A stretch of DNA of 64,000 bases from Tubulanus polymorphus. Its lineage: Eukaryota > Animalia > Nemertea. The stretch covers positions 5,108,175 through 5,172,174 of the forward strand of contig NC_134032.1 of the NCBI RefSeq assembly GCF_964204645.1. The letters run 5' to 3'. Of this stretch, positions 11,307-47,292 are shown one piece after another. A program made the translations under genes and the position numbers. Each line of letters opens with the position of its first letter. Positions within the stretch are counted from its first letter, which is position 1. The notes beneath the pieces are model-generated. The model was given only the letters and a program-made list of their open reading frames with translations, had not been told where the DNA came from and did no database searches.

Positions 11307-11909
11307 ATGTCAAAGAAATCGAGTAAGAATAATATTGATATTGAAAAGACATTAGATGATTTGGGTATAAGTGATAATAAAGATACAGTTGTAACTAATT
11401 CTATTCAAGTTAATAACAATATAGATTATGAATACTACTTATATTGTAAGCATCATCTAGAACTATTGATTGCTGGTGGAAAAACTAATGAGTTTTTAAC
11501 TAAGACTATTACTTTTCAAGAATTAGATGCTATGAAACCCGATAAAGTAATAAAATATTTTAAGATTTATGAAGAAGCTCGATTAGCTAGAATAAATGAT
11601 TCTATTTCTAATGGTATTGTCAAATGTTATTCTAAGTTATGTAACCAGTTAATACCAATTGATGATGAAAATAAATTATATAATGATTTGAAAAATGACT
11701 ATTTAGTTATGACTGAATTACAAAAATGGGTTGGATATGCTTCATTCCAATTAGGATCGGTTATGACGTTGATTTCTACTGGAGTTATAACATTTTCGAA
11801 CATCAAACCTATGGAATATAAATCAGGTAAGAACGAAACAGATGTACTACAACAAAACATCGAAACAGAAAATGAATCAGAACAAAAATTAACTAAAATA
11901 AATGAGTGA
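11307..11909 (+). CDS. Conserved hypothetical Polinton protein (homolog of 33926-34516)
   Basis: YEYYLYCKH...LKNDYLVMTEL shared with C; TAAATG start. Confidence 0.75.
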   Translation: MSKKSSKNNIDIEKTLDDLGISDNKDTVVTNSIQVNNNIDYEYYLYCKHHLELLIAGGKTNEFLTKTITFQELDAMKPDKVIKYFKIYEEARLARINDSISNGIVKCYSKLCNQLIPIDDENKLYNDLKNDYLVMTELQKWVGYASFQLGSVMTLISTGVITFSNIKPMEYKSGKNETDVLQQNIETENESEQKLTKINE

Positions 11910-12276
11910 TGGAGTTAAGAAAAAGGCTAGATCCGAGAAACAAATTAAATGGGCAAGAGAATTAGGTAAAAGATCATCAGAATTAAAAAAAGCTAAGAAA
12001 AAGAAATTAACTGATATAAATGAATCACCTGATGATGCCGTACGGCACCCACACGGTGGTATTGATTCAAATAATAATCCATCTAATTCTTCTAATAGTG
12101 GAAGAAATAATTACTTATATATTACAATTGGGTTAATCACAATTATTATATTATCCGGTGTAATATATAAATCAAAATTCAAATCCGATGATAAAGATGA
12201 TTCCAATGATAATAAACCTATCATACCCGAAAATAAGTCAAATGAAAATAAATCTAAAATATTATTAATGGATTAA
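11902..12276 (+). CDS. Small basic membrane protein (homolog of 33637-33978)
   Basis: KKxRSEKQIxW motif and one hydrophobic helix. Confidence 0.7.
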   Translation: MSDGVKKKARSEKQIKWARELGKRSSELKKAKKKKLTDINESPDDAVRHPHGGIDSNNNPSNSSNSGRNNYLYITIGLITIIILSGVIYKSKFKSDDKDDSNDNKPIIPENKSNENKSKILLMD

Positions 12277-12279
12277 AAT

Positions 12280-13368
12280 ATGATGAAAAAAGAACAATAT
12301 TTAAGAGATTTATATTATAACCCAGAAAGTGAAGTATCATTTTCTAACGTTTCAGAATTATGGAAAAAAATTAAATCCGATAATAGCAATATAAAATATA
12401 GTGAATTAAAATCATGGTTACAAAATCAACCCACATATCAAATTCATAAAAAGATGGATAAAAAATATTTAACAAGAAAAGTTATGGTTTCATATATTGA
12501 TCAACAATGGCAAGCTGATTTAATTGACATGAAAAACTTAGAAGAATACAACAAAGGATATTTTTGGATACTAAATGTTATAGATATATTCAGTAGATAC
12601 GCATGGAGTATCCCGATTAAAAATAAAACTGGTATAGAAGTTACAAGTTCTTTCAAATTAGTATTTAAAGAAGCTATCCCAGATAAAATACAATTTGATG
12701 AAGGTAAAGAATTTTATAACAAACATTTTAAAAAACTATTAACTGATAACGATGTAGAATATTTTTCAACACATTCAGATAAAAAAGCATCTGTTATAGA
12801 AAGATTTAATAAAACATTGAAAACTAGAATGTGGAAATATTTCACCGCTAATGAAACATATAAATATATCGATGTGTTAGATGATTTAGTGAAAGGTTAT
12901 AATAATTCTAAACATAGTTCTATAAATATGAAACCCATACAAGCTAGAAAAGAAGATAATTCGGAAATAGTTTGGAATAATTTATATGGAGCATTTGTTA
13001 CACACGATTTTGGAGAACCTAAATTTAAAATAGAACAATATGTTAGAATTTCTAAATATCGAAAAACATTTTATAAAGGTTATACCCCTAATTTTACAGA
13101 AGAAATATTCAAGATTAAAAAGATAATATTAACTAAACCATTTGTTTATAAATTGTTTGATTTAAAAGATGAAGAAATATAAGGTTATTTTTATGAACAA
13201 GAATTATCATTAGTACCAAATCCAGATGAAATAGAATACAAAATAGAAAAGGTATTGAAAACAAAAACTCTTAAAGGAAAAAAGTATTCTTTGGTGAAAT
13301 ATAAAGGATATGATGATAAATTCAATGAATGGATTTTATCTAGTAAAATTAAAAGAATAAATGAATAA
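12280..13368 (+). pseudogene. Retroviral-like (c-)integrase with C-terminal chromodomain, element B; one in-frame stop at 13180
   Basis: DDE motifs QADLID / QFDEGKEF / IERFNKTLK; after TAA the frame continues GYFYEQEL...YKIEKVL...LVKYKGYDDKFNEW. Confidence 0.92.
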
Positions 13369-13972
13369 AGATTTATTTATATTTGAACCACATAATATGT
13401 TAGTTACTGGAGTTACAAATTGTGGTAAAACACATTTCATATTAGACTTGTTAGAAACTATTTATAAAAATCATTTTGATAATATAATATTATTCTGTCC
13501 TACATATGAAATGAATGAAACATATAATAGAGATATAGTTAAGATAAAAAAGTTTATTATATTAGACCCTAAAACAGTAAAAGAAAATTTAGATAATTGT
13601 ATTAAAATTACATTAGATATTTATAAAGGATCTAATACATTATTTATTATTGATGATTGCGCAAATTTACATGATTCTAAAATTAGAGAAAGTGAGTTAT
13701 GTTATTTAGCTTTCTCTGGTAGACATTTTGGGATAACAACATGGGTTTTAAATCAGAAATATAATTCAATTGTGAAAGATTTTAGAGAGAATATAAGATT
13801 TCTAGTTTTATTTTATAACAAAGATAAAAAATCTATGCAACAATCATTGGAAGAAAATCAAATTATACCTACTGAATTACATGATGAGTATATGAATAAA
13901 TTAAAAAATAATAAAGGTTCAAAATTATTAATGAGATTACAATTTCCTTATGAATATAAATTTATAAAATAA
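13361..13972 (+). CDS. A32/FtsK-like packaging ATPase, element B
   Basis: GVTNCGKT Walker A, FIIDD Walker B, SGRHFGI motif. Confidence 0.92.
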   Translation: MNKDLFIFEPHNMLVTGVTNCGKTHFILDLLETIYKNHFDNIILFCPTYEMNETYNRDIVKIKKFIILDPKTVKENLDNCIKITLDIYKGSNTLFIIDDCANLHDSKIRESELCYLAFSGRHFGITTWVLNQKYNSIVKDFRENIRFLVLFYNKDKKSMQQSLEENQIIPTELHDEYMNKLKNNKGSKLLMRLQFPYEYKFIK

Positions 13973-13980
13973 CTATTTGT

Positions 13981-14086
13981 ATACCTATGTATTAGATACC
14001 CTATTATATACCCCAATACCTGATACCCTAATACCTGATACCCTAATACCTAATACCCTAATACCTGATACCCTATTAGATACCTT
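13981..14086. repeat. Short ATACCCTA/ATACCTG tandem repeats between convergent genes
   Basis: Visible iterated motif. Confidence 0.75.
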
Positions 14087-14142
14087 AAATAATTAAAACC
14101 CTTTTTTTATTTACTATTATTTTATACAATTTTCAACCTTTA

Positions 14143-15108
14143 TTATTCGAGTTTTAGATAATCAATTTCTGAATCACTTTCACTATCAGACGGCTCTAAC
14201 AACATATTTAAATGCTCTACCGAATCTACATCAACATCTTTATAATTTTTTTTCACCTTTTTCACCTTTTTCACCTTTTTCAAATTTTTTACTAAATCAT
14301 CAATAGTTGTTTCATTTTTTAACTTATTCTTCCAATCAAATTTATTATTATTTTCTACTTTAAGTTTTATAGAATCTTTATTACCAATATGTTTAACTGT
14401 AACTATATCATCATGTGGGTGTATGACATCATTTTCATTATCATCTTTATTAGTGTTTGATCCTAATATTTCATTTACAGTGTTTGATCCTAATATTTCA
14501 TTAGCATCGGTTAAATCTAATTCATCTTTATTAGGTGTTGCTAATAATAAATCTTCATATATTTTTTCACCATTTACTTTTTTATTTGAAACAAACTTTG
14601 TAACATATCTAAATGGGTGTTCTATAAATTCTCTTAAACCAACACGTTCTATAACATTAGTAATATGTGAATTTGTATTCATATGTTTATTCCAATTTGA
14701 TGGAGCGTTTGAAAATTCACCATTACAATAATCACAATAATTTCTATTTTCACTAACATTTAATATTATTGCATTATTATATGTAGAAGGTATTATGTTA
14801 TTAGATGTAGAGGGTATTACAGATGTAGAAGGTATTATGTTATTAGATGTAGAAGGTATTACATTATTAGATGTAGAAGGTATCACATTATTAGATGTAG
14901 AAGGTATTACATTATTATCAATTACATTACTTAAATTATCAACAACTTCACTTTTATTATTATCGATTTCCATTAGTTTAGTTTTATAATTTTTAAAAAT
15001 AGGATCAAATATCAAAGCTATATTACAAGGTATTACATAATATAAACCATCATTATTTTCATGTGTATCGATGTATGGAATATGTTTATATACTTTACCT
15101 CCTTCCAT
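14143..15108 (-). CDS. Hypothetical protein with (V/I)IPSTSNN repeats and a C2H2-like finger; absent from C
   Basis: CDYC...H...H motif; 24-bp coding repeats at ~14780-14915; TAAATG start. Confidence 0.7.
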   Translation of the reverse strand: MEGGKVYKHIPYIDTHENNDGLYYVIPCNIALIFDPIFKNYKTKLMEIDNNKSEVVDNLSNVIDNNVIPSTSNNVIPSTSNNVIPSTSNNIIPSTSVIPSTSNNIIPSTYNNAIILNVSENRNYCDYCNGEFSNAPSNWNKHMNTNSHITNVIERVGLREFIEHPFRYVTKFVSNKKVNGEKIYEDLLLATPNKDELDLTDANEILGSNTVNEILGSNTNKDDNENDVIHPHDDIVTVKHIGNKDSIKLKVENNNKFDWKNKLKNETTIDDLVKNLKKVKKVKKVKKNYKDVDVDSVEHLNMLLEPSDSESDSEIDYLKLE

Positions 15109-15140
15109 TTATTATATATATTTTTATTAAAGTTAAAATT

Positions 15141-16388
15141 TTAATACATAACACTATCTAATTGTGAATTTACAATATTTAATTGCGCGTCAGATAATAT
15201 ATAAATATGCATTTTAAAATTTTTAATTCCTTTTTTCTTTATCATGAATAATTGTATTCCATCTTTTGTATTTTGTAGTTTTTTCCCAGAACCATGTAAT
15301 AAGTTATCTTCAGTTGTTCTAAAATCTAACCATAATGCATATTTATTACCGGTATAATAGTCAATTTGATTAATGTTACAATTTTCAAATGATTTTACTT
15401 TTTCATTCATAAAATGTTTTTTAATTTCTACCCATTGATCTATCATTCTCATTCCTTGACAAAATATTTTATTCGCTATTCCTTCGATAGTTATTTCTAC
15501 TTTTGTTATTTCAGGATTATAATAATTGTCAACATTTATTGCGCCATTAGTATACGTTCCAATGGTAAAAAATATTAATATACCTTTAATAGATCTTCTA
15601 GGAAAGTTAATATTCTCATTTATTATTTCATCATTTGCATTAATAGTTACAGTTTTAAATTTATCAATATAATCATATAATAATGAAAATCCTTGATTGT
15701 ATTTAGTTTGAATTATACTTGAAATATTTTCATCAGTTACTGTATCATATTCTAAACATATATTCGATAATTTATAACTCATATCTTTATTAACGCTAGA
15801 TATTACAATTGCATTTACAGGAGCAAATGTTATCTCAAATATAATATCTTCTTGAATTGCGTATTTATATAAAGGTGCATTATTATTTATCAATTCAAAG
15901 TCTAATGGAATTTTATATTTGCTTCCATATATACTTTTTATCAATTTATCTACATCATTTGTTAATATTGCGCTATTAGCTTCTGATCTTAATTCATTTT
16001 GGTTTTCTGATTGGATGCCTTGAAATATCATATTATTTCTATTTTCTTTAGTTAACCATAAATCTTTATAATGCATAAATAAATTATAATCATCTAATGA
16101 GAAAACTGTTTCTGGATCAATCTTTATTGTTAACTTTTTAATCAAATATCTTCCAACATTATCAACAACATAATTATTATTATTACCGATTACTTTTATA
16201 TCAGCTGATAAATAAATACTGTTTGGAACATAAAAAGTATTTTGTGTTAATCTAGGAATTCTAACGTATAAAGTTTCATCGGGATTAATATTTGAAGGGT
16301 TATGAGTAATTATATGATGTGATCTTTCTGCTTTAATAGCATTAGATATTCTATGATTCTTAGAAGGATTGATATAACTCCCACTCAT
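15141..16388 (-). CDS. Major capsid protein (double jelly-roll, Polinton group-2 type), element B
   Basis: ITHNPSNI...YVRIP, LSNICLEYD, RRSIKGIL, LWLDFRT motifs; near-identical to 36567-37814. Confidence 0.8.
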   Translation of the reverse strand: MSGSYINPSKNHRISNAIKAERSHHIITHNPSNINPDETLYVRIPRLTQNTFYVPNSIYLSADIKVIGNNNNYVVDNVGRYLIKKLTIKIDPETVFSLDDYNLFMHYKDLWLTKENRNNMIFQGIQSENQNELRSEANSAILTNDVDKLIKSIYGSKYKIPLDFELINNNAPLYKYAIQEDIIFEITFAPVNAIVISSVNKDMSYKLSNICLEYDTVTDENISSIIQTKYNQGFSLLYDYIDKFKTVTINANDEIINENINFPRRSIKGILIFFTIGTYTNGAINVDNYYNPEITKVEITIEGIANKIFCQGMRMIDQWVEIKKHFMNEKVKSFENCNINQIDYYTGNKYALWLDFRTTEDNLLHGSGKKLQNTKDGIQLFMIKKKGIKNFKMHIYILSDAQLNIVNSQLDSVMY

Positions 16389-16442
16389 TTATTTAACAAA
16401 AAAATTAATTATTTATTTTTTGATATTTTTTGATATCATGGT

Positions 16443-18131
16443 TTACTTGATATTTTTTGATATCATATTTACTAAACCAAAAATAATAGCACTTACAACT
16501 GTAATTAGAAATAAAATAATATGTTCAGCAGCAAAGTTAATAATGTTTCCTGCAGATTTCAATATAAAACCAACAATTGAAGCAATAACTCCTGGTAAAG
16601 CTGCAGCAGATTTCTTTGATAGTTCCCACAAATATTTTGCTAATTTCTTTAAACCATCTTTAACTTTATCTTGTATAGAATTATTTCCTGGAGGTTTATC
16701 TGGTTTATTGGGAGTAGGAGTAGATTTCAAAGCATTTGATATTGCTAAACCAATTGTTGTAAATACCATAGTTACAGATGTTAGAATTGAAAGAATTGTT
16801 ATTCCTTCTAATTTAAATAATAACTTTATTCTGTCTTTTAATGATATTTCAGAATTTGGTTTAATCAACAAATCTTTAAAAATAACTTTTAATTTTTTAA
16901 TATGATTAAGATCATATGATTTTAATAATATATCTCTTTCTTCTTTTTGTAATTTTATGTTATATTCTAAATCATCTATTTCTTTTACTAAAGCTAACTT
17001 TCTGCTTTCAAAATCAGCTTCATAAACTACTTGATGATTTCTATTTAATTCTAATTGTTTTAATTCTTCATCTACATTAACTAATTCTTTTTCTAACATG
17101 GTTTTTTTAGAAAATCTCATCTTAATATTAGCAATTTCATCAGCTGATACTTGTATACCTTTAATTTCTCTACGTATTTGTTCAGGAAATGCTTCTAATT
17201 CTTCATCCGTTAAATTAAGAAATCCTTTTTCTAGTAAATATTGCAGTCGATTTATTCCAGTTTCAGAACCAGATGTATCTGATATACTATTCATCAGTTC
17301 TTCTGAATCTCTTAATCTATCAATTTGTTTTTCTAATTGTAATTTACTTGAATAATTATCAATTTGTTGAGTGTCTCTTCTCGATGTTTCGGGTGTTGAA
17401 GATCTCAATCTATCTAATCGATTTCTATTCTCTTCCATTTCTGGATCAAAATCAGTAGGATTTGGATTTTTAAATGGTGAATATTTGTTTATATTAATTT
17501 TAGGAATTGGTTCTTCTTCATTTATTCTATAGAGTGCATTCCATATAATTCTGAGAAATTCTCTACCACCTTTTGAATTTTCAATTGTAGATGTTGCTCG
17601 CATTTCAGGTTCAAAAATATTTTCTTGACCCATTTTAGATAATTGAATTGTTACAATATTCCTATTTAAATCAAGATTATAATACCATGCATCATTTTTA
17701 AATTCTAAATTATTTGTGAAATATGGGTCATCTTTAAAAATTTGTTCTACAACATCTTCAGTATCAATTTCATCTGTTACACCTGATGGTAATAATTCGT
17801 TAACAATTGTATCTGTTACTCTAGATTTCATTAAATATAAATCTTCTTTCAATTCAGGATCAGTTGTATTTACTAATCTATTCATTAAATCTTTTCTTTC
17901 TCTTCTAGTTGTAATTATACCCCTTTCAGGAGCTTCTAAATATTGTTTTATTTTTTCACGTAATTTGGGAACATCATCATAATCATCATCTTCACCTAAA
18001 TTAGTATTATATGCTGATTCATCATTATTATCAATATTAGCACCTGCATCATTATAATCATCATCAATATATCCTTCATTATTATTTCCCATGTCATCCA
18101 ATGGAATATCTTCTACACCTTCTACATCCAT
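16443..18131 (-). CDS. Coiled-coil protein with C-terminal hydrophobic/amphipathic helices (putative membrane-active virion protein)
   Basis: C-terminal LKDRIKLLFKLEGITI...ALPGVIASIVGFIL region essentially identical to 37839-39383. Confidence 0.7.
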   Translation of the reverse strand: MDVEGVEDIPLDDMGNNNEGYIDDDYNDAGANIDNNDESAYNTNLGEDDDYDDVPKLREKIKQYLEAPERGIITTRRERKDLMNRLVNTTDPELKEDLYLMKSRVTDTIVNELLPSGVTDEIDTEDVVEQIFKDDPYFTNNLEFKNDAWYYNLDLNRNIVTIQLSKMGQENIFEPEMRATSTIENSKGGREFLRIIWNALYRINEEEPIPKININKYSPFKNPNPTDFDPEMEENRNRLDRLRSSTPETSRRDTQQIDNYSSKLQLEKQIDRLRDSEELMNSISDTSGSETGINRLQYLLEKGFLNLTDEELEAFPEQIRREIKGIQVSADEIANIKMRFSKKTMLEKELVNVDEELKQLELNRNHQVVYEADFESRKLALVKEIDDLEYNIKLQKEERDILLKSYDLNHIKKLKVIFKDLLIKPNSEISLKDRIKLLFKLEGITILSILTSVTMVFTTIGLAISNALKSTPTPNKPDKPPGNNSIQDKVKDGLKKLAKYLWELSKKSAAALPGVIASIVGFILKSAGNIINFAAEHIILFLITVVSAIIFGLVNMISKNIK

Positions 18132-18147
18132 TTACATAATAAAAAAA

Positions 18148-19448
18148 TTAAAATTTAAAATATAATATTCCTCCGATTACAATTCCTATACAAGTTATAG
18201 CTAATTTAGTATTTTCATGTGATTTATTATCATCATCAGTTTTAATTATTTCATGTTGAATATTATCGGTTCTAATATCTTCTGATGTATTGTAATCTTT
18301 TATTTTAGAATCATTATTTAATTTAATATTCTTAGTTTTAGTTTCTGTTGATTGAATGTGTTTTTTATTTTTTTCACCTTCCATTAATTTTGGAGCAGTA
18401 ATAATCTTTTTATTTATATCATTCAATCCAAATGAATTATTTATTGTTGCAGTTTTAATTAGATTATTATAACCAATTATATTTCCCATCTTTAATACTA
18501 AATCATTAGAAATAATTAATAGATTAGGGCCTATACAATAATTAAGTCTTACATGAGATTTATCTAAATAATTTTGATATCTTATAATGTTTTCTGGAAT
18601 CGATCTATTTTTATCATTATGAATTGAATCTTCAATAAAACTTTAAACTGTTTCTGCGCATCGAATGAAGTGTTATCATTTCCAATTATTGGGGATCTTG
18701 TTTCAACTTGGGCGCCTAAAATACATATCAAATAAATTCTAATAGATTGATTTATTCTTTGTATACCTGATTTTGTAAAACCTTCACCATTTTCTAAAAT
18801 GAAATTAACCCAACCATTATTATTATCAATTTTATAATTATGATAAGCTGAAATTCTATGCATATAATCAATTCTTTTTATTTCATACTCTTCACCAACA
18901 CCTTGTAATTTACCATGCGCTCTAAAATCGGAATTAATATTTATATTAAATTCATTACATATTTTATAAAACTTGGATATATTAATATTATTATCCAATT
19001 CTTTAAAATATTTAGACCCAGGTAAAGGACATTCTAATTCATTTAATATTATTCTAATTTGAAAATATGTGTGAAATCTAAATATTGTGTGAATTAATTT
19101 TAAATCAGAATACTTCAAATTTTTATCTAAGTTATTTAAATGATCATTCCAACTAATTCCACATCCTGTTGTTGCACAATAAACAGCAAAATTTAATTGA
19201 TTCTGCCAATACTTCATATTAGATTTTACTTTATATATATGATATTCATCTCGAGTAAAAGTAACTTCATATGTATTAAATATATTTTCCATTTTAGAAA
19301 TAAAAAACTGTGATTCATTAACATAAATTTCTAAATTAGTTAATGAATTTAAAACTATATTTTTATATGTAATATTTTTCTTAAAATCTATTGCCGGAAT
19401 ATTATATTTAATTGATTTATTATATTGGAAAGCTTTTGGAAACCCCAT
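18148..19448 (-). pseudogene. Conserved Polinton protein (WQNQLNFAV motif), frameshifted copy of 39400-40722
   Basis: ORFs 18582-19448 and 18148-18489 join into the homolog of C's 440-aa ORF; frameshift near 18635. Confidence 0.85.
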
Positions 19449-19477
19449 TTATATAACTAAAAAAGTTAATAATTTAT

Positions 19478-19900
19478 TTATTCTTTTAATAATTTATCTT
19501 GTTCTTCAACTGTTATATGACCATTTAAACTTATTATATAATCTAGTGTGTTCTTTAATTTATTTATTTCTTTTATATTAGATTTTATTTTTTCTTTATT
19601 ACTTTTTATATTTAATTTTGAACTTATACCAGTTAAAACACTTGAACTGATTCCTAACACACCAATTGATATAGCTAAAGGTGTTAATGGACTGAATATT
19701 GCTAGAAATGTTATTACAGAACTAATTGTAACCGAACCACTAATAATAAGATAATATATAATTTTACTTTTTAAATATTTTTTCTTTTTTATCTTTAAGT
19801 CACTTTCAAATTCTAATAATTGTTTTTCTAAATATGTTTTTAATTTAGTTTTATTTATATCATGAGGAATAATATCAATACTATCAACTTTATCTTCCAT
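19478..19900 (-). CDS. Two-TM hypothetical protein (homolog of 40739-41173)
   Basis: Near-identical to the C copy; two hydrophobic segments. Confidence 0.7.
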   Translation of the reverse strand: MEDKVDSIDIIPHDINKTKLKTYLEKQLLEFESDLKIKKKKYLKSKIIYYLIISGSVTISSVITFLAIFSPLTPLAISIGVLGISSSVLTGISSKLNIKSNKEKIKSNIKEINKLKNTLDYIISLNGHITVEEQDKLLKE

Positions 19901-19920
19901 TTATTTAACAAAAAAAATTA

Positions 19921-20033
19921 CTAATTAGTAAACTTATAAGCAACAAAAAATATATAACTAAATAACCACCACCAGTAAATGCTAAAGCGTTAACAATTGC
20001 CGATCCTATAATAGTTATAATTGCAGAAGCCAT
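19921..20033 (-). pseudogene. Internally deleted copy of C gene 41194-41616
   Basis: MASAIITIIGSAIVNALAFTGGGYL joined directly to the 3' end (...TTTACTAATTAG); ~310 bp missing. Confidence 0.8.
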
Positions 20034-20057
20034 TTATTTAGCAAAAAAATTATGCAT

Positions 20058-20279
20058 TTATATGGGAGGAATATATTTTTGTTTTTCCAGATAATCAATA
20101 GTTAAATTAGATAAAGTAACTGCTAATGTTAACTTTAAAATATCATTTATATCAAATCTATCAACATTAACACTTCCCATTTTGAATACTTTTTTTAATA
20201 CCATTGAATAACCAACAGTTCCAACTGATAGTAATGCGCCATTATATAATCCAGTTATTATCCACTTATTATCACTCAT
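20058..20279 (-). CDS. Small hydrophobic conserved protein (homolog of 41641-41862)
   Basis: Near-identical in B and C; TAAATG start. Confidence 0.7.
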   Translation of the reverse strand: MSDNKWIITGLYNGALLSVGTVGYSMVLKKVFKMGSVNVDRFDINDILKLTLAVTLSNLTIDYLEKQKYIPPI

Positions 20280-20633
20280 TTATTTATCAAAAAAATTACT
20301 ATCATCAAAATATTTAGTTAACTTATTTATGATTAATTCAACATTTATTTCATTACTAGTTTTATGATTATCATATATTTTGGATAATATGTTTTTAATA
20401 TCATCGATGATAAAATCTTCATCTAATTCATAAAATCTTAAAGATTCTCTAATTAAATTAGTAATCTTTTCTACATTTAAAGTTTCTATTGTTGTTTCAT
20501 ACTCAAATGTTGTTTCATTAGAAAATACAACATTTTTGATATGTGTTATTACATCATTAATATTAAATTTCATTTCTTTCTCACGTTTAAAATCAAATCC
20601 AAAACATATACTCGGTCCAACAGTTATATTCAT
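20280..20633 (-). CDS. Hypothetical protein (homolog of 41863-42219)
   Basis: Conserved in B and C; TAAATG start. Confidence 0.7.
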   Translation of the reverse strand: MNITVGPSICFGFDFKREKEMKFNINDVITHIKNVVFSNETTFEYETTIETLNVEKITNLIRESLRFYELDEDFIIDDIKNILSKIYDNHKTSNEINVELIINKLTKYFDDSNFFDK

Positions 20634-20649
20634 TTATATATTAAAAAAA

Positions 20650-21405
20650 TTACTCTCTACATCTTATAACTAATTCATATATCACAGGAAAGTTATTTAA
20701 ATCAATTAAGTATCCATTATGATTTCTTATTTCTAATTTAAAATTATTAAATTTAGGAATGCAAGGTTTAAAATCACATTCTGTTAAATTATAATTTATT
20801 TGAGTTCCAAATTGTTTAACATTTTTTAGTGGTAAAATATTTAGTATACTAGAACTACAAATTGTTTCTTTAGTTGCTTCGAAAGTTTTTGTAGGCTCGA
20901 TTAAATTGCAATAAATATAAAAGTGCGTAAAAGGTATTATATTTGAGCTGCCTTCTGCGTTTCCAGTAACTGTAAGTGGTTTAATTCCTAACATTTTAGC
21001 CAGTGGTTTGTTTACCATAAATTTATGTTGTTCATTAGATATCTTTATTCTAATTTTATTAGTACTATCAATTTTATTAAATTTAATTTCAAATACAGAA
21101 GTGCCCCCGATTTTCAACCGAGCTCTTCTATTAATTTCCTGCGCTAATGATTCTAAATTATATAATCCTGGTTTTAAAAATATATGAAACCATTTATCTT
21201 TATTTCTCATATAAATCATAAACCCTCTATGTTCAAAAGTTTTATCTGATATATTATAAAAAGAATTACATAAACTTATATTAACTAATTTTAAATCTAC
21301 ACAATTCTTAAATTCTCTGTCTAATTGTACTAATAAATTATGTGATTTATAATTTGTAAGTTTTCTAGAATCAACAAATATTCTATATTCTTTTAATTCC
21401 ACCAT
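20650..21405 (-). CDS. Putative minor capsid (penton-like single jelly-roll) protein, element B
   Basis: IFVDSR...NSFYNI...YIYCNLI...LEIRNHNGYLIDLNNFPV pattern; heads the structural gene cluster. Confidence 0.65.
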   Translation of the reverse strand: MVELKEYRIFVDSRKLTNYKSHNLLVQLDREFKNCVDLKLVNISLCNSFYNISDKTFEHRGFMIYMRNKDKWFHIFLKPGLYNLESLAQEINRRARLKIGGTSVFEIKFNKIDSTNKIRIKISNEQHKFMVNKPLAKMLGIKPLTVTGNAEGSSNIIPFTHFYIYCNLIEPTKTFEATKETICSSSILNILPLKNVKQFGTQINYNLTECDFKPCIPKFNNFKLEIRNHNGYLIDLNNFPVIYELVIRCRE

Positions 21406-21422
21406 TTATTTTACATATTTTC

Positions 21423-21764
21423 TTATTCGAAATCTATTTCATGGTGCCCCTTTTCATTCTAACCTTTGTATACGAAATAGAAATCTCCAGAACATAATTC
21501 TTCTAGATCTTCACTTGATAATCTATGAAATCTATCTGGTAAATAAGTTCTGAATTTATATTTATTTCCTTTTAATCCTTCATATTCTAAATGAATTACT
21601 AATTTATCTCCATATTTGTTAGTAATTGTTTCAATGTTAGTAATTAAATATTTCTTGTGAATTGTTAACTCAGTTAGTACTTTAAATTTATAATCTACAG
21701 ATTTTACATTTGTAGTATCTTTAATTCTATCTAAGAATTCATTGTGTACTTGTTTACACTCCAT
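21423..21764 (-). pseudogene. Small protein (possibly OB-fold ssDNA-binding; homolog of 33160-33486), premature TAG at 21459
   Basis: After TAG the frame continues NEKGHHEIDFE*, matching NEDGHHDLEIVD* in C. Function is inferred only. Confidence 0.6.
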
Positions 21765-21792
21765 TTATTATACAAATTTTTATTGAAATTGA

Positions 21793-24700
21793 TTAACACG
21801 TTAGAATCCTTTTCATAATCTCATTTTCTTTTGTTTCTTCTCTTTTGAATTTTATATATTCATCTAAATTACAACCATAGGCGACTGTGTGGATTCCATC
21901 ATCTAAAATATATCTTTTATCATCAAATGGATTTAGACTTATCTTCTCTATCTCTTCAATATACATTTCATGATCTTCAGATCTTAAACATTTCATTTTA
22001 TGTTTTCTAACTTCTTCATTAAATATACAATTGATGTAATCTTTAAAATGAATATTCTTTTCTACTACATTTTTGGTTATTCCTTTTAACTCTTTAGCTT
22101 CATGTTCTTTAGTTTTATATGAATACATTTTAGATCTAATACCAATGAACTCTATCATTTCTTCACCACCTAATTCATCCTTAAACTTCCCAGGAACTTT
22201 TTTATTATCATTGCTAAACAATTCATGATTTTTTGGATAGTTACTGAAATCAAAATGGTGTTTTAATATTTTAAGTCTTTTGTTATGTTATCACTTTTTA
22301 TCTTTAATATGTAAGAATCTGTATCTAGATATAAGATTTCTATATGTTTTTCCCCAAAATGGGGTTGCAATACATTATAATAGAATTCATACATCAATAG
22401 CTTTGAAATTTCTAAAACTGCAGCTCCAACATAAATAGGTTTATTGAACTTCATAGAAGTTCTTTTTAATTTAACTGCAGCTAAATTTTCATCGAATATT
22501 CTATTACCTATGAATTTCGGATACGATTGCAAATGTCTAATTCTTTTACCATTACTAACTAACTCAATATCATTTCTATTTCTTATGTTTTCACATGTTT
22601 TTCCATAGAACGCATTATTCATCAGTTTAAAGTAATCCTTCTCAAAATCAGTTTTAGCTTCAGTTCTCTGTGTAGTATTAAAATCTATATATTTTTCTAA
22701 CCACTTAGATTGATTAAATGAAATATATCTATGTACTTTTTTTAATATCATTCTTTGATTCAAATAAAACTTCAACATTCTATAATGTACTACCTAATTA
22801 TATTTATCTTCTTGAGTTACCATTAACTTTTCTGTATGAATATGATTTTCAGGTTTAATTCTTTTTTGATAATTTGATAATTCTTCATGTTTAACAGTTT
22901 TATGTTCGGGACAATATGCTAGATTTCTAGATTTAAATTTAATATTTTCAGGGTATTCTAAATCTACAACAAAGAAGTAACCAATATCTGAATCATCTGC
23001 AATATCTAGGATTCTTTTCTTCCAATCAAATTTATCAATTTGTAAAACTTCAGTTATTTCAAACATCCCATAAGGTTGTGGTTCCATCATTGCCCAACCA
23101 TAAAGGTTATTTGCATCTATGTATAATAATTTATATCCAGGATTATCATTTACATTGAAATATCTATCACCCAATACACCTGAAACTCCTCCTCTTATAG
23201 ATTTTTCAAATAATAGTAATTGATCTATATTTGTTAACAAATCCATTTTTATATTTGTAAATTTTAATCCACAATCCCATGTTAATCCTGGTGATGAATA
23301 ACAATGACAAGGATCAATATTGAAATATTTTAAGTTTACATCTCTAAACCTTTCGAATATATCGGTTAATAATAATACATCTGATTTTAAATATAAATCT
23401 ACTAATTGTCCATGATTTTTAATTTCGAAATGATTCCAAATATTCAATGTTCTATTATATACTTCATCTTTAACATATTCATTTTTTAATTCATCATAGA
23501 ATTGTTCTTTTAATAATTCAGTTATTTTAAAATCATTATGATTTTTATAGAAAGAATATGGAATTGCACCTTTATATCTCATTAATTTAAAATCATCATA
23601 ATTTGGGTAATATTCTTTTAATATCTTTAATTCATCATCAACTAATGATTTTGATAAGTTATCTAATGAACTATTTAAAAATCTATATGAATCTATAAAT
23701 CTTAGACAACCAAATTGGAATGATATATAATTCTCAGATGTTTTAGCTAACATTCTAAATTTATAAGTTGGTATTTTATCTTTTGATTTATTTGAATTTA
23801 ATATTTCTATTTCATTATTAATTTCTTCTATTTTATGACATAACTGTTTGATAAATAAATGCGCGTCATACCCCGATAAATTGTGAAATATAATGGGGAC
23901 AAAATTTACTTTTTTGGCTTGCAAATTACAATTCTCATGTGCAGCGCCTCTAAATTTACCATTCAAATGATCATGGTCTCTTACTTTTTTATCTTTATAA
24001 TTAAATATCTTTTCACAATAATAACATTTATCTGCAAACCCAAATACTTCTTTATCTTCTTCTGTCATAATTATTTCTTTATTTGTATTCAATAATTTAC
24101 TAAATCTTATTTCATATTCAATTAATAAGTCACAAAAATGATTGATAACATTTTCATTTCTGTAATGATAATATTCACTTTCAATTAGTTCTGGATAATC
24201 AGATTTAATATATAACCCGAAAGCAGCAGCTGATTGATGAATCTTTTTAATAGTATTTGTTTTTGGTGGTTCTTCTGAATAATCATTTTCATTAGAATTT
24301 AATTTCTTTCTTTTATAATATATATCTTTTCTATCTTTATCTGTTAATTCTTTATTTAATGATTCAAAATCTCCATATATTACAAATGGTACTTTATTTT
24401 TGTAATCATATTTTTTGAATTCTAATATTTTATCTTTTTCATTTGGGAAAACTAATTTACAATAATCATGATTATCACATAGTTGTTTATGATTTAATAA
24501 TGTATTTTCATTACTAAATTTATGTAAACATTTTCTACATAGATATATTTTATGGTGATCATTTTCTGATTTGAAAAATAAATCTATTTGTTTAATCCAC
24601 ATATAATGATTCTCATAATATAGTATATCTATAACATCATTTGAATCATAATCTTTTGATAGATATAAAGGTTCTAATGTATAATGTTTAATATTATTTC

Positions 24701-25820
24701 CTTTTGTATTTGGTAATTTAATTAAATCAAATACATTTATCTTTAAATTATTATCTCTTTCTATTTTGGGGATGTTTTTAATTCTAACAGGATACTTATC
24801 TATCTTATAATTATTTTCAAATTGTTTATAATGAGTTAATCTAAAACTATGTGTAATATCTTCTGTTGGGTGTAAACAACTTATTATAGCCCATATAAAA
24901 CATTTATTATCAAAATTTTGTATATTTATTACACCATTAGTTTTAAATGGTAGTTTAATATAACTTGTTCCATTTATACTATCATCTTTATAATATGATA
25001 AATTATTTTCATCAATTGGTTTTGATTTAGTTAACTTATTATATTTTGTGTTATAAACATGTAAAGTTATAAATATTATCTCATCAAATATTAAACCAGA
25101 TCCTTCAAAATATTTCTCTTCTATTTTAGTTTTTATTTCATTATAACATTTATTTACTTTATCATCTATATGTTGTTTAGATATAATATGTTGTGAATGA
25201 GAATTTATATTATATATTGGTTTATCTTCAGATTTTATGAATTTAACTTTAGAAGATATACTAATTTTTGGATATTCTACGTTTGTAATTATTTTTATTA
25301 TTTCTTTCATATTTTCTAAATGTTTTTTATTTTCTTCTATTGTTTTTCCTTTATGAAATTTAAACTCGATAGCTGCTGGACCAATATCACTTTTAAATGC
25401 TTCGGTTATCTCTATATCTTTTTTATTATCTAATGAATTAATATAATTTCTTACATCTTCCATGTATGGTCTTTTATTGTTTAATTTATTTTTTATTCTT
25501 TTAATTGTTTTCTGTTTCTTATCGTTATCATTATCAAAATAATCTTCACCTAAAATATCATTATTCTTATTTCTAATATGACTTATAGATTTTAAATGTT
25601 CTTTATAATATCTTTTATCACTGAATGATTGATTACATGTATCACATTTATATGTTTCCTTTTCATTCTTTAATTCTTCTAATTTAGTTTCTAATATATC
25701 ATCCTTATATTCTAGTTTCAATTTATTCTCTAAATGTGTTATAGTTTTATTGTGTCTTGCTTTTTGAGATTTATCTATATCGATATTACATGTTGGGCAG
25801 TAGTACTTATTTGCTTCCAT
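21793..25820 (-). pseudogene. polB: Protein-primed DNA polymerase B of element B (one nonsense at 22794, one frameshift ~22270), intein-free
   Basis: IYGDFES, HNLSGYDAH, YIDANNLYG, KLMNNAFYGK, YLDTDS, KMY, KGI motifs; HNH/EndoVII insertion CYYC...DHDHLNGKFRGAAHENCN. Confidence 0.93.
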
Positions 25821-26308
25821 TTTAATACTATATTTTTTATTAAAATTGATTTTAGAAGTTCAATGATTTAAATGTTATTCATATATATATGAATATTTTA
25901 AGAGTAATAGGGGTAATGGGCTTTCATATCAAAGGTTTAATGATCGAGTTCACTAATAACATATATTAAAAGTAATTAAAAAACTATAATATATTTTCAT
26001 AACCGCGTGCATTTCAGTTGAATAATAGAATAATTATTATCATTTGAATATATTTGATTATTTGAATTTGTGTATTGTAATTAAATCAATTGGTCGCGGA
26101 GCGGAGCGGTGGCGAAGCGGAGCGACCAATTGATTTAATACAATATGCTTTTTATATTATTGATATCTTAGAATAAATATTTAGTTTTGATATAAAATGC
26201 ACGCGGTTATGAAAATATATTATAGTTTTTTAATTACTTTTAATATTTTGTTTTTTAATGGGCTCGACCGTTCGACCTTTGGTATGAAAGCCCATTACCC
26301 CTATTACT
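25707..26308 (-). repeat. Right TIR of B (hairpin unit 25903-26308)
   Basis: Inverted copy of 7937-8538. Confidence 0.95.
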
Positions 26309-32656: not shown

Positions 32657-32748
32657 AGTATTTAGAAAAGTGGGGTTTCAGATCAGAGGGCGTGAGGGCG
32701 AGACACCCCACTCATCACCACAAGTAATTTTTTTCCCTAATAAATGGG
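32657..32748 (+). repeat. Left TIR of C (degenerate similarity continues to ~32830)
   Basis: Reverse complement of 47201-47292. Confidence 0.9.
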
Positions 32749-32947
32749 AGACAGTGAGTTCCAAACAGAAAAAAGTGATGTCAATAAAAATCAATATTAT
32801 TGCCCATATTGTAAAAAATACATCGATAAACCTTACATGGAAAATGTTAGAAATTATATTGATTCACTAGAAATAAAAGATACAATTGAAATTTTAGAAA
32901 TATTACGTAGTAAAATTGTGACACACATAAACAGTGAGTGCGCGTAA
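32744..32947 (+). pseudogene. Deleted duplicate of the C pPolB 5' end
   Basis: VNKNQYYC.YCKKYID joined directly to KPYMENVRNYIDSLEIKDTIEILE; both segments occur in 44611-47205. Confidence 0.75.
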
Positions 32948-34800: not shown

Positions 34801-35409
34801 TTAAATAAATTCATATTTAAATGGGTGTTGTAATCTAAATAGTAATTTTGATCTTTTAATATTTTTCAACTTATCCATATATTCATTACGTAAATCATGT
34901 GGAATAATATCATTTTCCTCAAGTGCATTTTTCATCGATTTTCTATCTTTATTGTAGAATAAAACTAGAAATCTAATGTTTTCTCTAAAGTCTTTAACAA
35001 TTGAATTATATTTTTGATTTAAAACCCAAGTTGTTATCCCAAAATGTCTGCCAGAAAAAGCCAAATAACATAACTCACTTTCTCTAACTTTTGAATCATG
35101 TAGATTAGCACAATCATCTATGATAAATAATGTATTTGATCCTTTATAAATATCAATTGCTATTTTTATACAATTATCTAAATTTTCTTTTACTGTTTTA
35201 GGATCTAATATAATAAATTTATTATTCCTAGTAATATTTTTATCATAAGTTTGATTAAATTCATATGTTGGACAAAATAATACTATATTATCAAAATAGT
35301 TTTCATAAACAGTTTCTAATAAATGTAATATAAAATAAGTTTTTCCACAATTTGTTACACCAGAAATTAACATATTATGAGGCTCAAATATAAATAATTC
35401 CTTATTCAT
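34801..35409 (-). CDS. Packaging ATPase, element C
   Basis: GVTNCGKT, FIIDD, SGRHFGI. Confidence 0.92.
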   Translation of the reverse strand: MNKELFIFEPHNMLISGVTNCGKTYFILHLLETVYENYFDNIVLFCPTYEFNQTYDKNITRNNKFIILDPKTVKENLDNCIKIAIDIYKGSNTLFIIDDCANLHDSKVRESELCYLAFSGRHFGITTWVLNQKYNSIVKDFRENIRFLVLFYNKDRKSMKNALEENDIIPHDLRNEYMDKLKNIKRSKLLFRLQHPFKYEFI

Positions 35410-36536
35410 TTATATATTTTTAATTTTACTTGATAATATCCATTCATTGAATTTATCTGGCCATCCAACCCATTTTACTAAAGAATATTTTTTTCTTTTA
35501 ACAGTTTTTGTTTTTAGTACTTTTTCAATTTTATATTCTTGTTCTAGATTTTCAGTAGTTAAACTTAATTCTTCTTCATAAAAATATCCATCAACTTCTT
35601 CATCATCTAAATCTTCTAATTTATAGACATATGGTTTTGTTGTTATTACCTTTTTTATTTTATATATTTCTCTAGTAAAATTTCGATCGTATCCTTTGTC
35701 AAATATCTTTTTATACTTAGAAATTCTAACATTTTGACCAACTTTAAATTTAGGTTAACCAAAATCATCTACAAGAAATGCTCCATATAAATTATTCCAA
35801 ACAATTTCAGCATTTTCAGGTTTTCTAGCATCAATAGGTTTCATTCCAATAGAAGAATGATAAGAATTATTATATCCTTCTATCAATTTTGGTAAAACAT
35901 CAATCCATTTAAAAGTATTATTTGCCGTAAAATATTTCCACATTCTTGTTCTTAATGTTCTATTAAATCGTTCAACAACTGCTGCTTTTTTATCTGATTT
36001 TGTTGAAAATTATTTAATATTATGATTATCTAAGAGTTCATGAACAAGTGAATTATCAAACTCTTTTCCATCATCAAATTGTATTTTTTCTGGTTTTAGT
36101 TTATCATCCGAAAGAAATTTTCTTAAAACATTTGATGTTTGTACAGCATCTTTTCTATAAAGTGGGAAACTCCATACATAACGACTAAAAATATCAATTA
36201 TATTCAATAACCACCAATAATCATCATTATCTTTCTTAACATTTTTCATATCAATTAAATCTCCTTGCCACTGTTGATCTACATAACTTACCATAGTTTT
36301 ACGAGTTTTATATTTTCTAACAATTTTTTTATGTGTTGTATACGTTGGTTGTTCTAACATAAATTCATTTAATCTTTATATTTAACTAAATTTTGTGGGA
36401 TTATCTTATCTAATTTATCTTGTTTTACTTTACGCCATATATTTTTAGTAGAAGAATAAGCAACCGAACTCTCAGGGTTGTAATATAAATTTCTTAAATA
36501 TTGTTCTTTAGTATTAGGAGTTTTTTTACCACTCAT
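35410..36536 (-). pseudogene. Integrase with chromodomain, element C (frameshift ~36370, stops at 36010 and 35755)
   Basis: QGDLID / QFDDGKEF / VERFNRTL; C-terminal LVKWVGWPDKFNEW. Confidence 0.9.
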
Positions 36537-36566: not shown

Positions 36567-37814
36567 CTAATATTGAATACTATCTAATTGTGAATTTACA
36601 ATATTTAATTGCGCGTCAGATATAATATAAATGTGCATTTTAAAATTTTTGATTCCTTTATTCTTTTTCATGAATAATTGTATTCCATCTTTAGTGTTCT
36701 GTAGTTTTTTTCCAGAACCATGTAATGAATTATCTTCAGTTGTTCTAAAATCTACCCATAATGCATATTTATTACCGGTATAATAATCAATTTGATTAAT
36801 ATTACAATTTTCAAATGATTTTACTTTTTCATTCATAGAATGTTTTCTAATTTCAGGCCATTGATCAATCATTCTCATTCCTTGACAAAATATTTTATTT
36901 GCTATTCCTTCGATAGTTATTTCTACTTTTGTTATTTCAGGATTATAATAATTGTCAACATTTATTGCGCCATTAGTATACGTTCCAATGGTAAAAAATA
37001 TTAATATACCTTTAATAGATCTTCTAGGAAAGTTAATATTCTCATTAATTATTTCATCATTTGCATTAATAGTTACAGTTTTAAATTTATCAATATAATC
37101 ATATAATAATAAAAATCCTTGATTGTATTGAGTTTGAATTGTGCTAGCAATATTTTCATTAGTTACTGTGTTATATTCTAAACATATATTCGATAATTTA
37201 TAACTCATATCTTTAACAACGCTAGATAATACAATTTCATTTACAGGAGCAAATGTTATCTCAAATATAATATCTTCTTGAATTGCGTATTTATATAAAG
37301 GTGCATTATTATTTATCAATTCAAAGTCTAATGGAATTTTATATTTGCTTCCATAAATCTTTTTAATCAAATCATCTACATCATTTGTTAATATTGCGTT
37401 ATTAGCTTCTGATCTTAATTTATTTTGGTTTTCTGATTGAATTCCTTGAAATATCATATTATTTCTATTTTCTTTAGTTAACCATAAATATTTATAATGC
37501 ATAAATAAATTATAATCATCTAATGAGAAAACTGTTTCTGGTCCAATCTTTATTGTTAACTTTTTAATCAAATATCTTCCAACATTATCAACGACATAAT
37601 TATTATTATTACCGATTACTTTTATATCGGCTGATAAATAAATACTGTTTGGAACATAAAAAGTATTTTGTGTTAATCGAGGGATTCTAACGTATAAAGT
37701 TTCATCGGGATTAATATTTGAAGGGTTATGAGTAATTATATGATGTGATCTTTCTGCTTTAATAGCATTAGATATTCTAGAAATCTTAGAAGGACTTATA
37801 TAACTCCCACTCAT
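36567..37814 (-). CDS. Major capsid protein, element C
   Basis: Near-identical to the B MCP. Confidence 0.8.
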   Translation of the reverse strand: MSGSYISPSKISRISNAIKAERSHHIITHNPSNINPDETLYVRIPRLTQNTFYVPNSIYLSADIKVIGNNNNYVVDNVGRYLIKKLTIKIGPETVFSLDDYNLFMHYKYLWLTKENRNNMIFQGIQSENQNKLRSEANNAILTNDVDDLIKKIYGSKYKIPLDFELINNNAPLYKYAIQEDIIFEITFAPVNEIVLSSVVKDMSYKLSNICLEYNTVTNENIASTIQTQYNQGFLLLYDYIDKFKTVTINANDEIINENINFPRRSIKGILIFFTIGTYTNGAINVDNYYNPEITKVEITIEGIANKIFCQGMRMIDQWPEIRKHSMNEKVKSFENCNINQIDYYTGNKYALWVDFRTTEDNSLHGSGKKLQNTKDGIQLFMKKNKGIKNFKMHIYIISDAQLNIVNSQLDSIQY

Positions 37815-44392: not shown

Positions 44393-47205
44393 TAGCCATA
44401 AGGTAATGTTTTTATACCATCATCTGAAATATGCCTTTTATCATCAAATGGATTTAAACTAGTTTTTTCAACTTCATTAATGTACATCTCATGATCTTCT
44501 GATCTTAAACAATTCATTTTGTGTTTCATTACAATTGATTTATATAAACACTTTATATAATCTTGAAATTCTATATGTTTATCAACCACATGTTTTGTTA
44601 TTCCTTTTAACTATTTAGCTTCATGATCTTTTGTTCTATAACTATACATTTTACTTCTTATCCCAACAAATTCAATCATTTCATCACCTCCTAATTCATC
44701 TTTGAACTTACCAGGAATCTTTTTATTATCATTACTAAACAATTCATGATCTTTGGGGTAATTGCTAAAGTCGAAATAATGTTTCAATGTTTTTAAGTCT
44801 TTTGTTATATCATTTGTCTTGATTTTTAATATGTAACTGTCAGTATTGACTGCTATTAATGGAAATCCACAGTTAAATGTACCATCTTCAGTTGATAAAT
44901 CATAAACATAATCTGTTGGGTTATATATTTCAAATAAATCTTTAACTTCTTCAGTTAACTCATTTTCTACATGGCTTAAATTAAAGCAATTTGGTTTAGA
45001 TTTAATCAATCCAATATTCATATTAAAACCTAATGAATTGCATAATATATTTAATCCTGATATAGCAACTTTTCCTTTTTGAGCTAAAGATATTGTTTTG
45101 CGGTTTTTGAAACTTTTAGTACCATCTGCTGCATAGAATCCAATGAAGAACCATTTTCTTAAATTATTTTTTGCATTCAATACATAATCTGGAACTATCT
45201 TTTCTTTTGTTGAAGTATTACTTTTCACTATTGCATGAATATAGAATTCATCATTATATTTTGAGGCAAAATCTTTAGGATTATTTACAAATATTCTATA
45301 AACCGCGGATGATTTCATATGGTCCATGATTCTAAATGTTTTATGTGAATAAACTTCTTCACAGAATTTCTTAATTCTTTCTAATAATTTTAAGTCTTGA
45401 TTGCATAAATACCAACAATATTTATTACCCCAAACATATTTATACACACCTGCTGAACCATCACCCATGAAAAATCCTTTGATAAAATATTCTTTTTCTT
45501 CCAATGTTTCTGGTTCTATATTATAAATATTATCAATTATTTCATCAAATGACATATGATTCATTCTTGGGAAAAATCTTTTATGTAATAATTCATCTCC
45601 AATTTTTATATCAGTTGGTTTTATTTCATCGCCATTTTGTTTAATTAAACTATGATCTTCTGTAACATCTACAAATCCTAATTTAGTTCTAACTCTATAG
45701 ATTTTCTTATTTGTTTTATGTCTAATAATATTATTTAATTTTTTCCATCCATTTCTTGTCCAAACATCCATTAATCCATTTATTTGTATTAATTCTTTTT
45801 CACCGTATGAAATATAACATTCATTTTGTTTTGGAATTATTTCTGAAATTCTTCTTACCAATATTTTATCATTACATTTTAATAATATTGGGGTGTCAGC
45901 CGTTACAGAATCAAAATATAATATTTCAATATGCTTTTCTCCAAAAAGTGGCTGCAAAACATTATAATAAAAATCATACATTAGTAATTTTGATATTTCC
46001 AAAACAGTCGAACCTATAAATATTGGTTTATTAAATTTCATGGACGTTCTTTTTAATTTTACCGCTGTTAAATAATCTTCGAATCTTTTATTTTGTAAAT
46101 GTCTGGGGTTTGATTGTAAATGCCTTAATCTCTCAGAATTATTTACTAATTCGATATCACTTCTATTTCTAATATTTTCGCATGTTTTACCATAAAAACT
46201 ATTGTTCATCAATTTAAAAAAATCCTTCTCAAAATCAGTTTTTGATATTGTTCTCTGTTGAGTATTGAAATCTATATATTTTTCTAACCACTTTGATTGA
46301 TTAAATTTAATATACTTGTGCTTATATGCTTTCATATCTTTTTCTGTTATAAAGTTTGAATCATTTTTAAACATTTTATTACTTTTTGATGTTTTATTTC
46401 TTTTTGTATTATAAACATTTAAATCTAAATATATAATTTCATTCAATGTTAAGCCAGAACCCTCAAAATATCTTTCTTCAATATGACGTTTAAATTCATT
46501 TAATATTTTTTCTAACTTCTCTTTTATTTGTGTTTTTGAAATTATTTCTTCAGAGTGTGTTTGAATATTATAATCCATTTTTTCTTCTGACTTTATAAAA
46601 CTTACTTTCCCAGAGATACTAATTTTTGGATATTCAACATCTGTTATAAAATCTAGTATTTTTTCTATTATTTCATTAAATTTACTATAATCTTCTATTG
46701 TTGTACCTTTAAAAAATCTAAATATAATAGCTACAGGGCCAATTTTACTATGTAATGTTTCTAAGATTTCAATTGTATCTTTTATTTCTAGTGAATCAAT
46801 ATAATTTCTAACATTTTCCATGTAAGGTTTATTTGAAATGGATTTTGTTTTTGAAGTTGATTCTTTTACTTGTTGAGGTTTATTATCAAAATAATCTTTT
46901 CCTAAAACATTATTACTCAAATTTTGGTGGTGTTTTTGTGATTCGAGATGTCTATTATAATTCCTTTTTACTATAAATTCATTACAAACTTCACATTTTA
47001 TTTCATCCACATTCATATTTTCTAATCGTTCTTTTCTTTCATTAGAATTTTCTGGAGTTTCAAAATCTATTACATTTTTTATATGATTTGCAGTTTTTTC
47101 ATGTCGTGTTTTATGAGATGTATCGATGTATTTTTTACAATATTGACAATAATATTGATTTTTATTGACATTATTGTTTTCTGGTTGGTGTTCATTCTCC
47201 CCCAT
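44389..47205 (-). pseudogene. polB: pPolB of element C: exonuclease and motif A region deleted, intein-containing, nonsense codon at 44611
   Basis: N-terminal region homologous to B pPolB joins directly to FNQSKWLEKY...KLMNNSFYGK; YFD|intein|TDS; EAK*LKGITK continues to TLPYGY. Confidence 0.92.
44845..45909 (-). mobile_element. Intein with LAGLIDADG homing endonuclease (355 aa) in pPolB motif C
   Basis: Block A SVTADTPILL, block B VTEDHSL, LAGLIDADG motifs IKGFFMGDG and FIGFYAADG, block F YVYDLSTEDGTF, block G LIAVN/T; splits YFD|TDS, which is contiguous (YLDTDS) in B. Confidence 0.95.
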
Positions 47206-47292
47206 TTATTAGGAAAAAAAATTACTTGTGGTGATGAGTGGGGTGTCTCGCCCTCACGCCCTCTGATCTGAAACCCCACTTTTCTAAATACT
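47201..47292 (-). repeat. Right TIR of C
   Basis: Inverted copy of 32657-32748. Confidence 0.9.

Follow-up and report, generated by a model that had tools for sequence, protein, structure and literature searches.

A pol-c-type intein in the degenerate protein-primed DNA polymerase of an integrated Polinton

The window, i.e., the whole stretch of 64,000 nucleotides analyzed here, contains the element designated C, a Polinton that is integrated and measures about 14.6 kb. Its left terminal inverted repeat (32657..32833, forward strand) begins with AG after the target duplication ATAGTA, and its right terminal inverted repeat (47116..47292, reverse strand) ends with CT and is again followed by ATAGTA; the two repeats are 92% complementary. 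The 6-bp target duplication and the inverted repeats at both ends show C to be integrated and support the proposal in a preliminary description of the locus that a Polinton was the vehicle by which the insert discussed below entered a eukaryotic chromosome. The genes of C described here lie on the reverse strand. They encode an A32-type packaging ATPase (34801..35409; PF04665, E 5e-13), a truncated retroviral-type integrase (36010..36360; PF00665, E 4e-11), a likely major capsid protein (36567..37814), and a defective protein-primed DNA polymerase from family B (pPolB) of a divergent, Beta-like class (44611..47205). The capsid candidate has no Pfam match; its assignment relies on ESM Atlas features that are 0.97–0.98 similar to those of viral clusters, in some of which 10–14% of the members carry capsid Pfam families. 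C thus combines the Polinton hallmarks of a pPolB, an rve integrase, and an A32 ATPase, with polymerase and integrase broken yet recognizable. In a scan of part of C's ORFs, an adenain-type protease was matched only outside the element, at 31526–31993. The left end of C (32744–32917) holds rearranged fragments of the polymerase N-terminus that are 97% complementary to 46740–46832.

The polymerase gene of C is dead. Compared with its intact relative P0341, the encoded protein jumps from residue 289 to residue 1053 where the gene has suffered a deletion, near 46320; the missing stretch of about 760 residues (P0341 aa 290–1052) includes the exonuclease and the region of motif A. At 44611, a stop that comes too early additionally separates the ORF from the remainder of the gene at about 44390–44610, and no working polymerase could be produced even with splicing. 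PF03175 is matched by the close relatives P0132 and P0142, but not by the polymerases of C or of the neighboring element B.

Motif C of this polymerase is split by an in-frame insert of 1065 nt encoding 355 aa (44845..45909, reverse strand), and the junctions read ...EILYFD|SVTADTP...GFPLIAVN|TDSYIL within ORF 44611–47205. The preliminary description had placed such an insert in YFD|TDS, and its coordinates proved correct to the base. The N-terminal Hint (splicing) region extends over roughly aa 1–112 (45574..45909, boundary approximate). It is matched by TIGR01445 at aa 2–88, is all-beta in the structural model, and contains block A (S1-V-T..T-P, with serine as the class-1 N-terminal nucleophile) and block B (T83-E-D-H86). 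The LAGLIDADG endonuclease domain follows at approximately aa 113–315 (44965..45573), where helices modeled at 136–150 and 248–266 carry the motifs FIKGFFMGDG and FFIGFYAADG with the terminal acidic residues D150 and D262, respectively. The C-terminal Hint region (44845..44964) comprises blocks F and G with D337, the terminal Asn355, and an N[CST]GFPL signature that is common to a subset of giant-virus PolB inteins; the first residue of the C-extein is Thr+1. The similarity greatly exceeds chance expectation. Two profiles matched the insert above their cut-offs, TIGR01445 (intein_Nterm) with 29.5 bits against 24.5 and Pfam LAGLIDADG_3 with a score of 29 against 22.5, and Pfam Intein_splicing was matched with an E-value of 1.7e-7, yet below its gathering score.

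An AlphaFold2 model of the insert, based on an alignment of 82 sequences, reached a mean pLDDT of 93.6 and a pTM of 0.93 and displays a Hint fold whose N- and C-terminal parts close round the inserted domain. The top PDB matches of this model were TliVMA, PI-PkoII, PhoVMA, and PI-PfuI (E 6e-17 to 4e-12), PI-SceI was matched at E 2e-10, and I-DmoI and PI-type endonucleases also matched the endonuclease fold. Among viral structures in BFVD, the top named matches were the PolBs of a phycodnavirus, a pandoravirus, a marseillevirus, and a megavirus. Conserved residues, the two profiles, and the predicted fold therefore agree with the earlier statement that all intein blocks and two LAGLIDADG helices are present, and the Hint/LAGLIDADG profile search proposed there as a check came out positive. 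As judged from sequence and model, 44845–45909 is a genuine class-1 intein with a predicted LAGLIDADG homing endonuclease, and is predicted to splice.

The conserved positions of the family are Ser1, Thr83, His86, Asp150, Asp262, Asp337, and Asn355. Ser1 is kept in 14 of 15 rows from pPolBs (the remaining one has a gap) and in 66/66 rows from RNA-primed PolBs, the block B histidine in all 81 relatives, and D150 and D262 each in 15/15 pPolB relatives, all of which are full-length, with no mini-inteins among them. The penultimate residue of the window intein is valine rather than histidine, as had been noted before. At this position the 15 pPolB relatives have His (11), Lys (3), or Ser (1) and never Val, and 168 relatives at motif C of RNA-primed PolBs have Lys (74), His (73), Ser (8), Phe (6), Val (4), Arg (2), or Met (1). 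Histidine is therefore not required in this intein family, since Lys, Ser, Phe, and Val also occur. Nevertheless, the window intein may be partly decayed, because it deviates at 5 of 71 strongly conserved columns and its penultimate valine is absent from the pPolB relatives.

Two further Polintons share the window. Element B (7937..26308) has 602-nt terminal repeats and the target duplication TCTGCC, and appears to have inserted recently, because its terminal repeats are identical (100% complementary). B and C seem to be situated inside or next to an element A that is older and richer in GC, in a nested Polinton cluster (window positions 1–48900); the genes of A include a PC4-like (364–954) and a TBP-like gene (27198–27728), a chromodomain integrase, and an adenain-type protease. 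Directly after this cluster, 128 copies of a 118-bp satellite with 94% matches fill positions 48952–64000. Both A and B contain uninterrupted motif-C sites. In A, the site reads YTD|TDS, as previously described (1818..1835, reverse strand, coordinates counted from the translation), and belongs to a PF03175-type (Alpha) polymerase. In B, it reads YLD|TDS (22287..22358, reverse strand, junction 22323/22322). The preliminary description had taken B for the empty allele of C; the uninterrupted site and the DNA quoted for it were found as described, but the allelism did not hold up. The B polymerase belongs to a related but distinct family and is itself broken by a stop at 22794 and a frameshift near 22270. 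The DNA adjoining the site is about 75% identical between B and C, and only 12 of 18 bases match around the site itself. B was therefore rejected as the cognate empty allele or natural target of the C intein.

The intein of C is a member of a family that recurs at the same site. Altogether 346 longer proteins matched the insert at E ≤ 0.001, and among the best 12 of 120 listed longer matches nine are pPolBs that carry the insert at the identical position and are 40–63% identical to it; a search among proteins of similar length yielded 48 further matches, the best of which are fragments of the same kind. A motif filter applied to both match lists identified at least 25 related database clusters with the intein at this pPolB site, a lower bound since the filter missed P0002 and P0296; many of these clusters probably stem from few source genomes. 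Overall, the pPolB family inteins are 43–64% identical to the window intein. In the cluster of P0003, seven of 15 listed members are filled, four are empty, and four are unclassified. The metagenome contig L038, one of six examined out of 85 contig matches, encodes a pPolB that bears the intein and is interrupted by a stop. None of 67 pattern matches in GTDB genomes was a relative, and for IMG/VR none of the matches examined (37 of 59, and one of 184) exceeded 53% identity beyond a short stretch, the full-length ones all ranging from 31 to 41%. The top matches also include the topoisomerase II P0007, which contains several inserts; two or more of these are related to this intein family, suggesting non-allelic spread in giant-virus-like genomes. 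P0106, named DNA polymerase delta catalytic subunit of Chloropicon primus by NCBI, carries a relative of the intein, again at this site (YGD|TDS).

Two of the Polinton polymerases are filed under bacterial names, P0011 (Ca. Thiodiazotropha) and P0351 (Sulfurimonas), and both are likely eukaryotic DNA in bacterial bins. This is relevant to the question of which organism carries element C, because P0011, the sole relative with a name, is located on a contig of 2.5 kb from a symbiont bin labeled ‘ex Ctena orbicu...’, Ctena being a lucinid clam genus, and is best read as host DNA. An animal host is probable for C. That its host is instead a protist or cobiont, the intein residing in a eukaryotic viral insertion as in algae, appears unlikely but deserves serious consideration: the window contains no host gene, just Polintons and the satellite, Polintons occur in protists, and intein-bearing viral-like polymerases are known from algal nuclear scaffolds (PMC10710043). 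Besides the case of P0011, however, the presence of both polymerase classes together with an adenain-type protease, a chromodomain integrase, and an A32 ATPase fits the animal adintoviruses as portrayed by Starrett (2021, PMC8502044) and argues against a non-animal host.

Intact copies of the intein would excise by the class-1 mechanism, in which an acyl shift at Ser1 would be followed by transfer to Thr+1 and cyclization of the terminal Asn. Splicing would restore the catalytic YxDTDS motif (motif C), and selection would act on the Hint domain because the element needs the restored motif to replicate. The freed LAGLIDADG enzyme would then cut empty motif-C sites in sister Polinton copies, either in the germline or while the element replicates, and repair templated by a filled copy would turn the empty site into a filled one.

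Filled and empty copies do coexist in the species. In one raw genomic run from this species, of which about 12% was analyzed, 51 reads with 32 different start places join 44844 directly to 45910 and skip exactly 1065 nt; they represent empty alleles that are at least 85% alike to C. For the comparison of filled and empty copies within one genome that had been suggested earlier, these reads take the place of an assembly survey and reveal both states. Mean read depth is 207 over the intein and 19 in the flank to the right of C, and the ratio amounts to 8–13, although this flank may not be single-copy. At the deletion breakpoint 46314, where local depth is near 325, 371 reads depart from the window sequence, which suggests that most family members in the species lack the polymerase deletion. 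Nine of the 12 best-supported listed intein differences among copies are synonymous (569 further rows lie beyond these), consistent with purifying selection on the intein protein. The four read runs represent at most three samples from two studies, and one of them may have supplied the window sequence itself. With about ten filled copies alongside empty ones, such a genome would provide a natural system in which to study intein homing in a multicellular host.

A similar mixture is seen among database relatives. An alignment-anchored census of the 120 nearest relatives of the B polymerase found 75 empty, two filled, and three other sites among the 80 sequences that reach the site, the other 40 ending before it; the intein is rare in this set. 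When 68 N-exteins were placed on a quick tree, filled rows came to lie between empty ones in several subclades, and the nearest N-extein neighbor of C is the empty P0344 (89% identical); P0341 to P0344 serve as uninterrupted comparators that define a precise insertion. Even identical N-exteins of 140 aa differ in state, those of P0008 and P0139 being filled and that of P0142 empty. Moreover, P0004 is a PF03175-type polymerase like that of A, but with an intein. Its N-extein is 24% identical to that of C and its intein 50%, and against the other carriers the respective ranges are 17–31% and 42–50%. Because intein and N-extein identities are inverted in this manner, and not by virtue of tree topology, the sequences point to a jump of the intein between polymerase classes.

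Rather than homing, the intein might merely splice and be carried as a passenger, having entered once in an ancestral pPolB and having since been distributed by transposition and exchange of polymerase segments, with precise losses giving rise to the empty copies. Several observations agree with this scenario, which we nonetheless consider unlikely. Among the divergent-class pPolBs, intein and extein identities broadly covary, as vertical descent with repeated loss would also predict; exchange of whole pPolB genes between Polintons has been reported (Jeong 2023, 10.1101/2023.08.22.554363); and an AU test did not reject a tree with the P0004 intein outside the other nine pPolB inteins (p 0.358). 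On the other hand, both catalytic aspartates are retained in 15 of 15 relatives, all full-length and none reduced to a mini-intein, and filled and empty alleles with identical exteins occur. In P0004, moreover, the intein crosses polymerase classes and both flanking exteins are class-specific. We regard spread by homing as the likelier reading, and the copy in the window, with its dead gene and five deviating columns of 71, is probably a relic of a homing population.

The insertion point itself connects this family to known inteins, since motif C matches the pol-c site defined in the Mimivirus PolB by Ogata (2005, PMC549080), as the preliminary description had recognized from the YxD|TDS context. 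Intein phylogenies were calculated by quick searches without bootstrap and rooted at the midpoint, archaeal pol-c inteins being absent from the data set; seven near-identical rows were dropped before the FastTree analysis, and five more, along with unsampled distant rows, before IQ-TREE. In the FastTree phylogeny of 197 inteins, all 12 pPolB inteins form one clade (0.999), and in the IQ-TREE phylogeny of 74 of these inteins, ten of ten do so (SH-aLRT 100). In the latter, the pPolB clade is sister (91) to 14 inteins of RNA-primed PolBs that have the C-terminal signature N[CST]G[FYTS]PL, and both groups fall inside a clade of 53 rows (99) that otherwise consists of motif-C PolB inteins. The signature also occurs on the giant-virus GVMAG contigs L001, L002, L009, and L044, the first three of which are 58–81% identical to the signature-sharing RNA-primed PolBs. 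Outside Polintons, these sequence comparisons place the intein closest to the PolB inteins of giant viruses, with the Polinton clade nested in their midst, which addresses the phylogenetic question raised by the preliminary description as far as giant viruses are concerned. Because of this nesting, a single crossing from a giant-virus RNA-primed PolB to a Polinton pPolB is likely; spread among Polinton lineages by homing likely followed.

That part of the earlier proposal which derived the intein from the PolB of a large DNA virus is in line with the nesting. A recent single transfer into C was rejected, and an old crossing with later spread over several Polinton lineages taken as likely, in view of the 43–64% identity among the family inteins and the similar GC content at third codon positions (GC3) of intein (0.146) and N-extein (0.144); since the two GC3 values are equal, they fit a long residence in Polintons. 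The direction of the exchange could in principle have been the reverse, from Polintons to the sister giant viruses, or both could have received the intein from an unsampled third party. The pPolB clade is indeed sister to, and not inside, the signature-sharing giant-virus clade, and FastTree gives it different nearest neighbors with weak support (0.72). Both clades nevertheless lie within the larger set of RNA-primed PolB inteins, and these far outnumber the pPolB ones among the matches, so that we regard an origin in Polintons or a third party as improbable and retain the crossing from giant viruses to Polintons. An assembly chimera or contaminating giant-virus DNA has a negligible probability and was rejected, as read depth is continuous over both junctions and matches the element, intein and extein have equal GC3, and independent records contain the same insert at the same site.

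Taken together, we consider it probable that a pol-c intein crossed once from a giant virus to a Polinton pPolB and spread by homing, and that the copy in the window now resides in a dead gene. A further reaching possibility, to which we give somewhat less than even credence, is that this intein lineage is homing actively among Polintons in animal germlines and that its jumps record co-infections by Polintons and giant viruses. If true, it would be the first mobile intein in Metazoa, and the forebears of animal Polintons would have gone through a virophage-like phase. Ogata (2005, PMC549080) judged it implausible that homing could bridge polymerases as distant as these. The pol-c allele described here spans RNA-primed and two classes of protein-primed PolBs, which makes the target tolerance of the endonuclease amenable to testing, and the intein may serve to trace earlier encounters of Polintons with giant viruses.

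In insertion point (YxD|TDS), size range, Ser1/Thr+1 residues, and Hint plus LAGLIDADG architecture, the window intein corresponds to the pol-c inteins of giant-virus PolBs as characterized by Ogata and in the survey by Green (2018, PMC5784728), representatives of which share 33–44% identity with it. Those inteins, however, reside in the RNA-primed PolB of a lytic virus, whereas the host protein here is the protein-primed polymerase of an integrating, multi-copy element and the intein belongs to a clade of its own. Virus-mediated entry of a polymerase intein into eukaryotic chromosomes likewise characterizes the viral-like DNA polymerase inteins on nuclear scaffolds of Klebsormidium, Tetrabaena, and a labyrinthulomycete, which Gallot-Lavallee (2023, PMC10710043) describes along with Anaeramoeba inteins. 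The main text of that study contains no occurrence of ‘polinton’, ‘animal’, or ‘metazoa’, and in contrast to its cases the vehicle here is an element that transposes and that exists in filled and empty versions next to each other. Insertions of HNH, VSR, and GIY-YIG nucleases in Polinton pPolBs have been reported (Jeong 2023; Krupovic 2024, PMC11071308), and according to Krupovic (2024) pPolB nuclease inserts may ‘result from intein invasions’; the word ‘intein’ does not occur in Jeong (2023, 10.1101/2023.08.22.554363), where HNH and VSR inserts are described. These, too, are nuclease domains inside a Polinton polymerase, but the sections that describe them mention no splicing domain. Unlike them, the window insert would have to be spliced out, because a complete Hint domain splits the catalytic motif. 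The fungal VMA1/PI-SceI and Prp8 inteins resemble it as nuclear-encoded Hint and LAGLIDADG folds, at about 10% identity. Fungal nuclear inteins occupy cellular genes, and their homing takes place at meiosis rather than among the copies of a mobile element.

A literature search that took in few subscription journals, and neither supplements nor InBase or Repbase, returned no account of a pPolB intein with a Hint domain. Apparently, the window intein represents an undescribed pol-c variant with a new host protein class and a new vehicle, and probably a pol-c intein in a new kingdom. According to reviews, metazoan genomes lack inteins, an absence presented there as the rationale for intein-inhibitor drugs (PMC5784728; PMC8529194, 2021). 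An intein family in Polintons would qualify that statement, though it concerns the gene of a mobile element and not a host gene.

Two further features of the Polinton cluster were noted. The terminal repeats of B contain internal inverted repeats (7999–8282 and 25963–26246; 65 nt at 91%, and 57 nt) that are capable of forming hairpins. Furthermore, many ORFs in B and C are preceded by an A/T motif that ends in TAAATG and overlaps with their start codon (16381–47226; repeat families D12, D13, D17, and D19). It resembles the late promoter of poxviruses and may be an element-specific promoter.
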